DNA of 64,000 nt from Vulcanimicrobiota bacterium (GTDB lineage Bacteria; Vulcanimicrobiota; Vulcanimicrobiia; Vulcanimicrobiales; Vulcanimicrobiaceae). A program made the position numbers and the translations under genes. The stretch covers positions 160,001 to 224,000 of the forward strand of contig CAWGBN010000006.1 of assembly GCA_963820825.1 (NCBI GenBank), read 5' to 3'. The notes beneath the pieces are model-generated. The model saw only the letters and a program-made list of their open reading frames with translations. It was not told the DNA's origin and did not search any database. The stretch's first letter is position 1. The number at the start of each line of letters is the position of its first letter. Shown here one piece after another: positions 7,718 to 13,601 of the stretch.

Positions 7718-7902
7718 GCTCGAACCCTAATGATGGGCGTGCCGCGCGTGCGCCGTCGGACCGCTCGTCGCTCCGCCTCCATGCTCCGCTCCTGCTGCAC
7801 CGCGCTCGCGCCACCTGTCAAGGAAGATTCTTGACATCCTGTCAATGGCGCTCGCGTCGGAGCTCCTCCTTTGCACGTGCGGCACGCCCATCGCGTTCGA
7901 GC
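7718..7902 (-). repeat. Structured intergenic element, copy 1 (lptB to lptF/G)
   Basis: 20-bp terminal inverted repeat (7732-7751 / 7873-7892, 1 mismatch) plus an outer gctcgaac/gttcgagc pair. Core blocks 7788-7812 and 7846-7862 are identical to copy 2. Confidence 0.85.
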
Positions 7903-7910
7903 AGGCGCGT

Positions 7911-8654
7911 TTATAATCTGAATCCTTCGCCGAGGTAAAACTGCCGTGCGATCGGGGAGTCGAGCACTTCTTGCGCGCTGCCGGAGACCTCGATGCGGCC
8001 GTTGTTGAGGATGTAGGCGCGATCGACGATCGCGAGCGTCTCGCGGACCTGGTGGTCGGTGATGAGAATTCCGAGGCCACGGTCCCGCAGCTGGCGGATC
8101 ATCGCCTGAATGTCGGCGACCGCGATCGGATCGATTCCCGTGAAGGGCTCGTCGAGCAGCAGGAATGCCGGCTGGATCGCAAGCGCTCGAGCGATCTCCA
8201 CGCGCCGGCGCTCGCCGCCCGATAGACTATCGCCGCGCGCGTCGACGAAGGCGCGAAGTCCGAACTCTTCGAGCAGTGCCGGCAGCCGGTGCTCCCGTTC
8301 TTCGTGTGAGACGCCGTTCTGTTCCCAAATCAGACGAATGTTATCGCCCACCGAGAGCTTGCGGAAGATCGAGTTCTCCTGCGAGAGATAGCCGATGCCG
8401 TTGCGCGCGCGGGCATACATCGGCGCGGCGGTGAGATCGATCTCGCTCTCGCCGTTGGCGAGCACGACGGTGCCGCCGTCGGGTTTGATCAACCCGACGA
8501 CCATGTAGAACGTCGTCGTCTTTCCGGCGCCGTTGGGGCCGAGCAGACCGACGACTTCGCCGGTCTCGACCTCGGCGGTAACGCCGTTGACGACGATTCG
8601 TTCGCCGTAGCGCTTCACGAGACCGCGAAGCTTGATCGCTGATGTACTGCTCAT
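7911..8654 (-). CDS. lptB: LPS export ABC transporter ATP-binding protein
   Basis: GLLGPNGAGKTTTFYM, IGYLSQENSIFRKL, LSGGERRRVEIAR, LDEPFTGIDP, LITDHQVRETL; C-terminal FYLGEGFRL. Confidence 0.97.
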   Translation of the reverse strand: MSSTSAIKLRGLVKRYGERIVVNGVTAEVETGEVVGLLGPNGAGKTTTFYMVVGLIKPDGGTVVLANGESEIDLTAAPMYARARNGIGYLSQENSIFRKLSVGDNIRLIWEQNGVSHEEREHRLPALLEEFGLRAFVDARGDSLSGGERRRVEIARALAIQPAFLLLDEPFTGIDPIAVADIQAMIRQLRDRGLGILITDHQVRETLAIVDRAYILNNGRIEVSGSAQEVLDSPIARQFYLGEGFRL

Positions 8655-9196
8655 TGCATCCGCATGTGAGTGAGTGAGATATCCGAGTCAAAGCTCGAAC
8701 CGGTCGCTCGGAAACCCTTCGGGTCGGTGACCACGACGTCGCCGGTTCCGTGCAGCATCCCGGTAGCTCGATCGTAAACGAGCTGCGTGCACTCCAACGT
8801 CATCCCCGACGACGTGCGAGCGTGAACGCCATTACGCAGCGTCACGGTCTTCGCCGCCTGATCGACGACCGCTTGGGGCGCGGTCGCGGCGATCGTGGCT
8901 CCGATACGGTGGAAGGTCACGCGCGCGTCTTGGAAGACCGCGAGCGCGCCTCCCTGAGGGCCCTTGCTCTCGTACGAGCTTGCCAGCAGATCGTAGTCGA
9001 CCCGGTTGTGGACTTGCTGAATGAGGTGCACGGGGCGGTGTGCCGTCCCCCGGCCCCTGATATCCAGCACCAGCGGGGTCGCCGTAGCGCGCGCCTTGGG
9101 TGCGGCCGACGGAGAGGGAGTCGCCTTGGGGGCTTGGGGATTGCATCCGGCACCCGCCACAAAGGCGATCGCCGCGACGACGCCGCGGTAGCGCAC
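8651..9196 (-). CDS. lptC: LPS export periplasmic protein, LptC-like (beta-jellyroll, possible lipoprotein)
   Basis: GTG at 9196; hydrophobic stretch ending in GAGC; jellyroll-like strands (LECTQLVYD...LHGTGDVVV); directly upstream of lptB. Confidence 0.75.
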   Translation of the reverse strand: MRYRGVVAAIAFVAGAGCNPQAPKATPSPSAAPKARATATPLVLDIRGRGTAHRPVHLIQQVHNRVDYDLLASSYESKGPQGGALAVFQDARVTFHRIGATIAATAPQAVVDQAAKTVTLRNGVHARTSSGMTLECTQLVYDRATGMLHGTGDVVVTDPKGFRATGSSFDSDISLTHMRMQ

Positions 9197-9198
9197 GA

Positions 9199-11567: not shown

Positions 11568-12313
11568 GCCGCGCCGCGTTCCAGCAGCGGAACGAGGGCG
11601 AACCCGGCCAGCGAGAATCGCCGCCGTTGCGGGTCGTACTCGAGCTCGCTGCGCGAAACGAAACGCCCGTAGGGACCGGCGTGCACGATCGGAACGGCTC
11701 CGGCATACTCCGGCTCGACCAGCGTGTCGTGACTATGCCCGCCGAGGATGAGATCGATGCGCGGTACGACCGCGGCGAGCCGACGGTCGAGCCGTAGCCC
11801 AACGTGCGAGAGCACGACCAAACAATCGCCCTCGGGAATTTGGCTTGCGTATGGCGCCACGGCGCTCCACGGCTCGAGAAAACGCCAGCCGAAGAGGCGC
11901 TCCCAGTTGCTTCCCGTTCGATACTGCATGACGAGCAGGCCGAGTACGTGCACCCGGACCGGCTCGCCGCTGTCGCCGGTTACGTCGAATCGGATCGACG
12001 GCAGAAAGGGCAACGCCCGACCCTTCGTGTCTTGCAGGTTGGTGCAGACGAGCGGATGGTGCATGCGCGCGGCGCGCGCGCGAAGCAACGCGAAGAGATA
12101 GTGAAATTCGCGATTGCCGATCGCTTGGGCGTCGTAACCCGCCGCATCCATCTCGGCAACGATCGGCTCGTCGCGATAGTAGAGGCTTTGGCTCCCCCGC
12201 AGCGAGTCGCCGCAATCGAAGAGCAGTCCCGGGTGCGCCGCGCGCAGCGCGCGCAGCGGCGCCACGATCCCTCGCCGGTCGTGGAGATCCGACGTGTGAT
12301 AGATGCGGATCAT
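11564..12313 (-). CDS. Calcineurin-like metallophosphoesterase (5'-nucleotidase N-terminal-type domain only)
   Basis: HTSDLH, DCGD, GNREFH, LSHVG and GGHSH metal-binding motifs. ATG 12313 overlaps the lpxB TGA. Confidence 0.88.
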   Translation of the reverse strand: MIRIYHTSDLHDRRGIVAPLRALRAAHPGLLFDCGDSLRGSQSLYYRDEPIVAEMDAAGYDAQAIGNREFHYLFALLRARAARMHHPLVCTNLQDTKGRALPFLPSIRFDVTGDSGEPVRVHVLGLLVMQYRTGSNWERLFGWRFLEPWSAVAPYASQIPEGDCLVVLSHVGLRLDRRLAAVVPRIDLILGGHSHDTLVEPEYAGAVPIVHAGPYGRFVSRSELEYDPQRRRFSLAGFALVPLLERGAA

Positions 12314-13425
12314 GCTGCGCCGCGCGCCAGCTCGACCGCGTACCGCGCGCAACGCTCGAGCGCGTCTGCAGGTCCGAGCGCCGCGCGCAAGGCGACGAAC
12401 TCTTCGTATTGCCGCGCGGGTTGCGCCATCAGCGATTCGATAGTAGCGGCAAGTGCCTCCGGCGTTGCCCGTTCCTGCAGCAACTCGGGGACGACCTCGC
12501 GTCCCAGTACGAGGTTCGGCAGCGTAATGAACCGGTGCTTGATCATTCGGTGCCCGTACCGGATAAGAATCGGCGGGATGACGTAGATTGCGACGGCCGG
12601 TACGCCGAGCAGCGCCGTCTCCAAGACCGCCGTCCCCGAGGCGACGATTGCCGCGTCGGCATCCTCGACCGCGGCGCCAACGCCGCGTGCGACGCTCACA
12701 TCCTTGAGCTTCTCGTCGTCGATCGAACGCCGGATCGATCGTTGCGCGCGATCGTCCGCCGCTCCGAATATACCGCGAAGGCGCGGCCGCCGCGATTGCA
12801 GCGCGCGCAGCGTCGCCGCCATGACCGGCAGATGCCGGCGCAGCTCGCCCGAGCGGCTCCCGGGCAACATCGCGACCGTTCCGCCGTCGGGCGAAGGCGC
12901 GTCGCGCAGCGGCCGCATCGCGTACCGGCTCGCCAACGGATGGCCGAAGAACTCGATACCGCAGCCGAGACTTCGATAGAAATCGTACTGGTGTTTGAAT
13001 GCCGTCACCGGCGCGGCAACGGCGGCAACGTTGCGCGCTTTCTCCGCGTTGTCGAGCCACGTACCGGGCGGAAAGAGATCCACGATCGGACCGGCGTAAT
13101 GCAAACGGCGGCGCAGCGTATTCGCCAATCGCAGATTGAAGACGCCGAAATCGACCAGCACGACCAAGTCCGGCTTCGACGCCACGATGTGGAAGGCCGT
13201 GCGCAGCATCGCGGCCAGCAGCTTGGGAATCCGCGGTATCGCCGCGAGCGGACCCATGCTCGCCCAGCCGCGGTGATTCATCCAAAGACGAAATCCTGCG
13301 TCTCGCATTCGAGTCCCACCGATTCCCTCGAACTCTGCTTGCGGATCGATTCTCCGAATGGCGTCGGCGAGTAGAATCGCCATCGCTTCGCCACTCGGCT
13401 CCCCCGTTGAAAAGAAGTACCGCAC
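12310..13425 (-). CDS. lpxB: Lipid-A-disaccharide synthase
   Basis: STGEPSGE, EGIGG, VLVDFGVFN, FFGHPL, LPGSRSGE, ASGTAVLE and ITLPNL motifs; GTG start at 13425. Confidence 0.93.
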   Translation of the reverse strand: MRYFFSTGEPSGEAMAILLADAIRRIDPQAEFEGIGGTRMRDAGFRLWMNHRGWASMGPLAAIPRIPKLLAAMLRTAFHIVASKPDLVVLVDFGVFNLRLANTLRRRLHYAGPIVDLFPPGTWLDNAEKARNVAAVAAPVTAFKHQYDFYRSLGCGIEFFGHPLASRYAMRPLRDAPSPDGGTVAMLPGSRSGELRRHLPVMAATLRALQSRRPRLRGIFGAADDRAQRSIRRSIDDEKLKDVSVARGVGAAVEDADAAIVASGTAVLETALLGVPAVAIYVIPPILIRYGHRMIKHRFITLPNLVLGREVVPELLQERATPEALAATIESLMAQPARQYEEFVALRAALGPADALERCARYAVELARGAA

Positions 13426-13429
13426 GCTA

Positions 13430-13601
13430 ACTGCTTCTGCGCCGGCCGCGACGTGCCGCGTCGGGGTCGCTCGTCGCCCGCATCCTGCGGGCTCCTGCTG
13501 CACCGCGCTCGCGCCGCCTGCTAAGAAAAATTATGACCTCCTGTCAGTGGCGCTCGCGTCGGAGGCCCCTCCACGGCACGTCGCAGCCGGCGAAGCGCAG
13601 T
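13430..13601 (-). repeat. Structured intergenic element, copy 2 (lpxA to lpxB)
   Basis: 18-bp terminal inverted repeat (13441-13458 / 13574-13591, 1 mismatch). Core blocks 13491-13515 and 13548-13564 are identical to copy 1. Confidence 0.85.

Follow-up and report, generated by a model that had tools for sequence, protein, structure and literature searches.

Two related elements fill gaps in a lipid A/LPS operon

The window, that is, the whole stretch of 64,000 nucleotides that was analysed, contains a run of lipid A/LPS genes on the minus strand. Two gaps in this run are filled by two copies of a hairpin-rich element, here called subtype A. The host genes and the parts of both copies are:

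6602..7705, minus strand: host gene, LptF/LptG-type permease (TIGR04408, E 8e-64, just below the cut-off)
7718..7902, minus strand: copy 1, subtype A, occupying the gap that separates lptB from lptF/G; the GGA strand is the mRNA strand; 134 bits with covariance model R1, which was built from this copy
7718..7751, minus strand: copy 1, 3' inverted arm, ending 12 nt before the lptF/G start codon
7763..7795, minus strand: copy 1, 3' module common to the subtypes, with G-A internal loops and GGA hairpin 2 (7775-7784, AUGGAG loop)
7832..7844, minus strand: copy 1, GGA hairpin 1, with a 4-bp stem and AGGAU loop; absent from the lowest-energy fold
7847..7859, minus strand: copy 1, 5' strand of the tandem G-A helix, pairing with 7801-7812
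7873..7902, minus strand: copy 1, 5' inverted arm, site-specific in sequence
7911..8654, minus strand: host gene lptB (TIGR04406, above the cut-off)
12310..13425, minus strand: host gene, LpxB-like, labelled from its position and N-terminus
13430..13601, minus strand: copy 2, subtype A, occupying the gap that separates lpxA from the lpxB-like gene after it; the GGA strand is the mRNA strand here
13430..13458, minus strand: copy 2, 3' inverted arm
13469..13498, minus strand: copy 2, 3' module with GGA hairpin 2 (13477-13491, AGGAU loop)
13534..13546, minus strand: copy 2, GGA hairpin 1, AGGAG loop; the GGA is paired in the lowest-energy fold
13574..13601, minus strand: copy 2, 5' inverted arm, homologous to the same-site arm of a related genome (G005) whose core faces the opposite way (score 29; 99th percentile of different-site pairs, 21)
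13612..14379, minus strand: host gene lpxA (TIGR01852, above the cut-off)

The two copies are 81.6% identical over 141 bp (BLASTN, E 4e-26). A sequence-only reading of this DNA had described shared blocks of 25 bp (7788-7812 = 13491-13515) and 17 bp (7846-7862 = 13548-13564), and both are indeed identical between the copies. The same reading had given 18-20 bp for the closing stems; the arms turned out to be longer, about 28-34 nt. It had also counted two copies, which is correct for the window, but these are only 2 of 17 in the source genome (G000).

The fold is conserved in a dispersed family

On the minus strand the two copies had folding energies of -103 and -113 kcal/mol (z = -7.3 and -7.1), and 0 of 200 shuffles folded as well; the plus strand was worse by about 10-16 kcal/mol. 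The positions first claimed for the tandem G-A helix and for each of the GGA hairpins, four in total, proved correct. In the lowest-energy fold of both copies GGA hairpin 1 was missing, being opened in copy 1 and having its GGA paired in copy 2; this hairpin was accepted because of covariation across 23 copies (double changes in two of its four pairs), not because of the lowest-energy fold. Across the core, double changes were seen in 14 of 33 pairs, a value reached by 0 of 500 shuffles. Here and elsewhere the p-values are overstated because the copies are related by descent. The covariation supports the proposal that a single-strand structure is conserved across a dispersed family. For the closing arms, covariation alone is not proof of an RNA, because inverted-repeat arms are homogenised by template switching, according to the available text of PMC8604942.

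Every copy has the same architecture: inverted arms of variable sequence and 17-72 bp in length enclose tandem G-A loops and a pair of hairpins with GGA loops. The postulated conservation of the GGA loops held: the 5' hairpin loop motif C-N1-2-GGA-N-G was present in 108 of 118 copies. The 3' loops were somewhat more variable, with no leading A in 29 and no GGA in 5 of the 113 that were scored, and non-GGA variants recurred inside one genome. Both GGA loops appeared in the lowest-energy fold of only 40 of the 118 copies. It is nevertheless the GGA strand that carries the fold, whichever way the host genes run: it folded better than its complement in 115 of 117 copies, and on it G-T mismatches outnumbered A-C mismatches by 99:19 beside the core (25:8 when antisense copies are taken separately) and by 55:26 in mid-arm, the ratio in the outer arm being 50:47.

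With one covariance model, 17 copies were found in G000, five of subtype A (E < 1e-28) and 12 of other subtypes (E <= 6e-4), bearing out the notion of a dispersed family. At least five subtypes exist, which have the 3' module in common. A strict form of this module was detected in 63 of the 151 genomes that make up the class, most likely Vulcanimicrobiota, and in 39 of the 44 other genomes of the genus, with 0-14 exact matches per genome and 0-2 for a reversed-pattern control. Where both flanks were called, 92 of 93 copies were located at gene 3' ends, their neighbours being either co-directional or convergent. Five doublets were observed, all divergent and spaced by 233-306 bp. Viral contigs gave three matches, all of them chance matches lacking the remainder of the element, and a genome-wide scan for paired GGA hairpins failed to discriminate (4 pairs; 0-5 for control loops). 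GC skew in G000 was too weak for assigning replichores.

Orthologous sites differ in occupancy and orientation

The 29 readable loci at the lptB-lptF site comprised four subtype A copies (two sense, two inverted), four copies of other subtypes, one remnant, and 20 loci with none. At the lpxA-lpxB site, 30 loci comprised five subtype A copies (two sense, three inverted), two inverted remnants, five other GGA subtypes or parts, one locus with another repeat, and 17 with none. Two further sites showed the same mix of states. The counterpart of copy 2 is inverted in the two nearest relatives, and in the tree at lpxA the sense copy of G000 is nested in a clade of inverted copies. The element probably inverts in place; alternatively, the opposite orientations could stem from independent insertions into one symmetric hairpin.

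Arms from the same site were more alike than arms from different sites (18.1 versus 13.6; 28 versus 638 pairs). Most same-site pairs scored close to the background, and two pairs in opposite orientation reached 29 and 32, compared with a background 99th percentile of 21. At one site the arms were suggestive of inverted copies of target DNA, with deletion remnants fitting equally well.

A search was made for genes that might mobilise the element. The sequence-only reading had pointed to RAYT/HUH transposases as a check, and no Y1 transposase (PF01797; RAYT/IS200) was found in G000 or in 81 genus genomes. Reverse transcriptases were encoded in 16 of the 81, with none in G000, where DUF559 was likewise not found. 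G000 has only two GIY-YIG genes, which we take to be UvrC-like and UPF0213-like. Model R1 detected no element in the surroundings (about 1.5 kb) of 30 GIY-YIG and 20 reverse transcriptase genes, and among 204 flanking proteins (129 clusters), judged by eye after clustering, no recurrent mobility gene was recognised. No clear target-site duplication was seen: direct repeats of 5-7 bp flanked 14 of 117 copies (6.8 expected), the outer ends being poorly defined. Terminal inverted repeats conserved among copies, as in MITEs, were not found; the outer arms differ between sites.

A probably mobile repeat that may bind CsrA

On balance, we regard the element as a dispersed hairpin repeat at gene 3' ends, present in either orientation: likely a non-autonomous mobile relative of TwoAYGGAY that probably inverts in place and whose GGA loops would bind one CsrA dimer when transcribed. 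New copies would be produced either by trans-acting transposition or by gene conversion with an existing copy as donor. Because of the inverted arms, template switching during replication, or recombination, could then turn the core around and make the arms alike, and we propose this as the reason why arm sequences change while their pairing stays. A sense copy would be read through into mRNA and provide a two-site CsrA ligand in an intercistronic or 3' region, and an antisense copy would be silent. GGA in hairpin loops, in pairs, is what a CsrA dimer requires and is found in the sponge sRNAs CsrB, RsmY and RsmZ, as set out in PMC4333381, and binding of CsrA is predicted for both loops of the element. 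The CsrA part of the earlier reading required csrA in the genome; the gene is present, and its product matches solved CsrA/RsmE chains.

An alternative is that the repeat acts as single-stranded DNA, like REPs or SRMs, its fold being read on DNA by a nuclease (e.g., of the Ssn-type GIY-YIG family) and its likeness to CsrA sites being incidental. We consider this unlikely, though it accounts for several observations. Which strand folds is independent of transcription, and with DNA parameters too the GGA strand folded better than its complement, in 110 of 117 copies. The 3' module is preceded by the tag GCAG in 105 of 118 copies and by GTAG in two (the search pattern favours these tags), resembling the GTAG-1/2 REPs (PMC3733652). 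Pieces of TGTC-type REPs lie in or abut 16 of the 118 copies, versus 1.7% of G000 windows; such REPs bracket 30 of 30 small GIY-YIG genes, and Ssn-type GIY-YIG genes are common in the genus. However, the published SRM pattern (PMC11893778) matched 0 of 118 copies, although it is insensitive here and catches only 2 of 30 GIY-YIG loci. No GGA element lies near the 30 GIY-YIG genes, neither of the two such genes in G000 is small and REP-flanked, and no RAYT was found in 81 genomes. Furthermore, the GGA stays fixed while the loop around it is 5 nt long in some copies and 6 nt in others, which is also the case in TwoAYGGAY.

It is rather doubtful that the copies are domesticated multi-copy sRNA genes, each transcribed on its own, that titrate CsrA in place of its antagonist FliW. 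The gene content fits this idea: csrA was found in 44 and fliW in 0 of the 44 other genus genomes, and in G000 csrA is located apart from flagellar genes and neither FliW nor flagellin had a match (genome 85% complete). Divergent doublets could have a common promoter. Independent transcription would also account for the excess of G-T mismatches in antisense copies. But a sigma-70 consensus scan, whose consensus may not be that of this lineage, found no promoter-like site in 7400-14000; neither window copy has a U-tailed terminator at its 3' end, and nothing is conserved upstream of the core. Positions turn over fast, and an exact module match was lacking in 5 of the 44 csrA-positive, fliW-negative genus genomes. 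Confinement of the element to fliW-negative genomes was considered and rejected, as fliW-positive genomes carry the module too (12 matches in G027). The co-occurrence of csrA and the module is a weak link: 0 of 18 csrA-negative genomes had the module, but 12 of these belong to a family in which 0 of 32 genomes carry it.

A bolder and improbable version is that the copies are invertible CsrA-sponge cassettes, in which flipping between the arms is frequent enough to serve as a heritable on/off switch, on in the sense and off in the antisense orientation, and the summed orientation of about 17 copies sets free CsrA per cell in a lineage that has csrA and has lost FliW. If true, a global RNA regulator would undergo phase variation without a recombinase, and mobility would be joined to regulation in the TwoAYGGAY superfamily.

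That the element is an RNA that regulates lipid A/LPS genes specifically, in cis and on the operon mRNA, is highly improbable: both window copies are sense and directly upstream of LPS genes, and the two sites were reoccupied in several clades, but 20 of 29 loci at the one gap and 17 of 30 at the other have no element, about half of the full copies there are inverted (2 of 4 and 3 of 5), and 15 of the 17 G000 copies lie outside the window, those examined flanking unrelated genes. Random orientation to transcription, which had been named beforehand as an outcome that would refute the earlier reading, was what the counts showed, the GGA strand being sense in 25 and antisense in 31 copies between co-directional genes (p ~ 0.5, an estimate). 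Orientation varies at orthologous sites with no bias towards the transcribed strand, the folding strand being constant, and this combination argues against gene-specific cis regulation. In the reading that we favour, it is incidental that the two copies sit among LPS genes, and an LPS-specific switch is unlikely.

Relation to known systems

No account of this repeat family was found in the literature searched, a coverage that most subscription journals lie outside. Rfam models yielded nothing in the window at gathering thresholds and only chance matches at E <= 10. The RF01731 covariance model found no match in the window at gathering, nor at E <= 10 in 7400-13900, G000 or 20 loci; because of this, we call the element TwoAYGGAY-like and not a member of that family. 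Strict AYGGAY was seen in 29 of 108 scored 5' loops and in none of the four window loops.

With TwoAYGGAY (RF01731; Weinberg et al. 2010, PMC2864571) the element shares two sequential GGA-loop hairpins on a common basal stem and, going by PMC4333381, tandem G-A pairs in the stem and a poorly conserved outer stem. The loop variants seen here, including 5-nt AGGAN and non-GGA ACGAN, also occur in Weinberg's seed alignment. In Pseudomonas 68.4% of TwoAYGGAY doublets are divergent, with a median of 249 bp, close to the arrangement of the five doublets here. In contrast, subtype A has a second junction, with a bulge rich in A and U, from which its first hairpin emerges. TwoAYGGAY has an extended form in Pseudomonadota, with additional hairpins, a 3' pseudoknot and repeated 5-6-mers upstream. 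Variable copy number and an association with REP repeats are common to both. To our knowledge, no function of TwoAYGGAY-type elements has been demonstrated since 2010.

Binding of CsrA to TwoAYGGAY was proposed earlier (Gardner and Eldai, PMC4333381), as was a mobile-like expansion (Li et al., main text of bioRxiv 10.64898/2026.09.22.753630), where the link between mobility and regulation is termed unresolved. The main text of that preprint does not name Vulcanimicrobiota, the host lineage here, and does not contain the word 'invert'; opposite orientations at orthologous sites are a feature of the present family.

The Csr/Rsm sponge sRNAs likewise have paired GGA hairpin loops, whereas the element offers just two such loops, held on a rigid scaffold, is scattered over the genome in many copies at mobile positions, and had no promoter or terminator that was found. 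GTAG REPs and REPINs (Di Nocera et al. 2013, PMC3733652) resemble it in lying at gene 3' ends between co-directional or convergent genes, in a GYAG tag with two unpaired nucleotides between it and a stem, in G-T pairs and in forming dimers; however, a REP is a hairpin of 20-40 bp accompanied by a RAYT, whereas the element is branched, 140-200 nt long and without a Y1 transposase in the 81 genus genomes searched. TGTC/CGTC-tagged repeats with Ssn GIY-YIG nucleases (Chenal et al. 2025, PMC11893778) exist in the genus as a separate second repeat; Ssn-related motifs flank nuclease genes, whereas the GGA elements adjoin 0 of 30 GIY-YIG loci.

Novelty is therefore lower than first assumed, the architecture being that of TwoAYGGAY. 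New are the lineage, which the Rfam model misses and to which this architecture is now extended, the apparent inversion in place, and the absence of strand bias. Since one operon exists in nature with the element in sense, in antisense and not at all, these alleles provide material for CsrA-binding tests.

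The two window copies belong to a dispersed, structured family

The two LPS-operon gaps that hold GGA elements (copy 1, 7718-7902; copy 2, 13430-13601; both minus strand) aligned over 141 bp with 81.6% identity (E 4e-26), and the two blocks that the sequence-only reading had described as identical between them were indeed identical. Copy 1 separates lptB from an LptF/G permease gene, and copy 2 separates lpxA from a gene that, by our own reading, is probably lpxB-like. The minus strand of both copies folded far better than shuffled sequences (z about -7). All four GGA hairpins proposed from the sequence were located:

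7832-7844, minus strand, GGA hairpin 1 of copy 1
7775-7784, minus strand, GGA hairpin 2 of copy 1
13534-13546, minus strand, GGA hairpin 1 of copy 2
13477-13491, minus strand, GGA hairpin 2 of copy 2

Hairpin 1, however, was absent from the lowest-energy fold of both copies. Counted by eye, about 16 of the 23 subtype-A copies have a UCCU-like tract in the A/U-rich bulge 3' of hairpin 1 (within 7813-7844 and 13516-13546 in the window, minus strand); this tract can pair with the GGA loop, and the site is then concealed in an alternative fold.

BLASTN and nhmmer recovered five full subtype-A copies from the source genome, G000, together with several partial matches, which were other subtypes having the 3' module (the part around hairpin 2) in common with subtype A. 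When 23 subtype-A copies were used to build a covariance model, its search of G000 gave 17 copies (five being subtype A) with E <= 6e-4, and the next matches had E >= 0.08; within the window, the model found only the two copies already reported. The exact pattern of the 3' module was present in 63 of 151 genomes of the class and, within the genus, in 39 of the 44 genomes besides G000, with 0-14 matches per genome versus 0-2 for a reversed-pattern control. The GGA element is real, structured, and dispersed, which supports the earlier proposal of a dispersed structured family. One subtype-B copy (G000:C5:280-418) is immediately followed by what we take to be a tRNA-like sequence and a trigger-factor-like gene.

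In a species-wide collection, at least 120 stretches matched. Among the matches listed, 56 of 80 were titled Vulcanimicrobiota, Eremiobacter* or Ca. Cybelea, and the remaining 24 comprised seven with a full element and 17 that were chance-like; these titles suggest Vulcanimicrobiota as the host lineage. Full elements occurred in assemblies titled Acidiferrales/Acidoferrum, Alphaproteobacteria, Babeliales or 'bacterium' (L138, L144, L165, L189, L192, L193, L211), reflecting either mislabelled records or a broader range.

The survey set comprised 125 candidates from the loci collected and from G000; seven were dropped as chance matches, leaving 118 copies. Their cores span about 85-120 nt, with two hairpins (one in two copies) and G-A-rich internal loops, and the inverted arms that close them have a median length of 37 bp (range 17-72) and a sequence that varies between sites. 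In the subtype-A alignment, double changes were found at 14 of 33 pairs, a level reached by none of 500 shuffles, including two of the four pairs of hairpin 1. None of the pattern searches selected on the 5' loop; of the 118 copies, 108 match C-N1-2-GGA-N-G there, three of those matches appearing incidental. For the 3' loop, GGA was part of the selection in most copies; of the 113 loops scored, 79 begin with A, 29 begin with another base, and five lack GGA.

One strand folds, whichever way the host genes run

With some reserve, we lean towards a mobile repeat resembling TwoAYGGAY (an RNA motif, Rfam RF01731) that inverts in place and is predicted to bind CsrA when transcribed. One strand of the element folds irrespective of host-gene direction. 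Arm mismatches on the GGA strand were G-T versus A-C at 99:19 next to the core, 55:26 in the middle of the arm, and 50:47 farther out, and at 25:8 next to the core of antisense copies only; these ratios overstate significance because the copies have ancestry in common. Of 117 copies, 115 folded better on the GGA strand under RNA parameters and 110 did so under DNA parameters, so that RNA and single-stranded DNA are not distinguished. The element could be a substrate of a single-strand DNA nuclease, which we regard as unlikely; GGA elements do not fit the SRM pattern of the Ssn nuclease system.

A second, TGTC-tagged repeat agrees in layout with Ssn/SRM, as far as the accessible part of PMC11893778 describes it. 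It brackets a small GIY-YIG gene in 30 of 30 top-scoring loci (background 2/4020), and the published SRM pattern catches two of these 30. In these genus loci (L292-L321, about positions 1250-2000), the GIY-YIG genes encode about 100 aa and the bracketing hairpin repeats are inverted. Neither of the two GIY-YIG matches in G000 was a small repeat-bracketed gene. The TGTC-tagged repeat was in or beside 16 of the 118 GGA elements; several elements were nested in TGTC-repeat dimers or had cores carrying inserted pieces of that repeat (L144, L188, L202 and L010, L046, L156, L158, L175, L194, L272). Searches of G000, the genus genomes, the element flanks, and nuclease/RT loci found no mobiliser of GGA elements, and no clear target-site duplication was found.

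Distribution of csrA and the module

G000 has one csrA, remote from flagellar genes, that matches solved CsrA/RsmE chains; in this genome, which is 85% complete, neither FliW nor flagellin was found. The gene stands alone (L031:1381-1656, G000:C5), between what are presumably a sulfite-exporter-like gene and sulfate adenylyltransferase-like genes. In the class draw, 133 of 151 genomes carried csrA and 45 carried fliW, tallies that include the unpublished genome G115 (csrA-positive, module absent), on which no other result rests; in the genus, the numbers were 44/44 and 0/44. The module occurred in none of 18 csrA-negative genomes, 12 of which belong to a family lacking it throughout. In the host's family outside the genus, it occurred in 0 of 6 csrA-negative genomes versus 20 of 65 (p about 0.1, hand calculation). 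Genomes with fliW may carry the module, as G027 does in 12 copies. CsrA homologs vary in the GGA RNAs that they repress (PMC13443453, accessible part). The genomics is compatible with, rather than proof of, CsrA binding by GGA elements. Alternatively, the copies might be independent sponge sRNAs, which seems to us distinctly improbable.

Occupancy, orientation and probable in-place inversion at host genes

Orthologous gaps were read at 30 + 30 genus loci, including those of G000. At lptB-lptF (29 readable), subtype A was sense in two (GGA strand as host mRNA) and inverted in two, with other subtypes in four, a remnant in one, and nothing in 20. Subtype D occurred there on three scattered branches amid empty relatives, suggesting that this site was reached repeatedly. 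At lpxA-lpxB (30 loci), subtype A was sense in two and inverted in three, with inverted remnants in two, other GGA subtypes or parts in five, another repeat in one, and nothing in 17; three further metagenome copies were sense (one) and inverted (two). In five relatives, two other G000 sites were variously filled, empty, swapped, or inverted.

A simple gene caller of our own defined the flanking genes, by which the 118 copies lay between convergent (36), co-directional (56; 25 sense, 31 antisense), or divergent (1) genes, inside a called ORF (5), or beside an uncalled flank (20); subtype A by itself was sense in 12 and antisense in 14. The suggested role as cis-regulator of LPS genes fails on the many empty gaps, the inverted copies there, and the missing sense bias, and is highly improbable.

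At gap-less lptB/lptF junctions (L052-L055, L058 and L057, L059, L061), the lptF frame appears to start at an ATA or CTG, with a 4-nt overlap at the lptB stop codon; translational coupling possibly allows this non-canonical start.

Outer arms were more similar at the same site (18.1, 28 pairs) than at different sites (13.6, 638 pairs). Two same-site pairs of opposite orientation scored 29 and 32 (99th percentile, 21), one being window copy 2 with its counterpart in G005. In a tree of lptF, G000, whose lpxA copy is sense, forms the sister branch of two genomes with inverted copies; outside them, with weak support, branches one that has an inverted remnant. These data suggest inversion in place. 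Most remaining same-site pairs scored near background, so that independent insertions into the same symmetric hairpin may also account for the opposite orientations. For inversion in place, template switching between the arms would flip the core and homogenise the arms, as it does between inverted repeats in yeast, where the spacer is inverted (PMC8604942, accessible part). Arms would then covary without selection on RNA, and the G-T bias would fade outwards.

Comparison with known systems

The literature searched held no published description of the GGA-element family. GTAG REPs, as far as PMC3733652 is accessible, have placement and a GYAG tag in common with GGA elements, but no RAYT was found here, in 81 genus genomes. 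The RF01731 covariance model gave no score, and GGA elements are therefore not filed as TwoAYGGAY members. Nevertheless, the loop sets are the same: the available part of Weinberg et al. 2010 (PMC2864571) has 5-nt and non-GGA loop variants in the TwoAYGGAY seed alignment. Gardner and Eldai (PMC4333381, in part) mention a predicted CsrA match for that motif as well as tandem G-A pairs and an outer stem of low conservation. Excerpts of Li et al. 2026 (10.64898/2026.09.22.753630) report variable copy number, REP association, and 68.4% divergent doublets (median 249 bp), leaving mobility versus regulation unresolved; GGA-element doublets were divergent in 5 of 5 cases (233-306 bp). Divergent doublets of unlike subtypes, about 240 bp apart, lie at G000:C6:98800-99140 (L260, A + C) and C6:582950-583265 (L261, E + C). 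By analogy, the GGA element would work like TwoAYGGAY. Its architecture is known from that motif, a kind without explanation so far, of which the GGA element is a variant.
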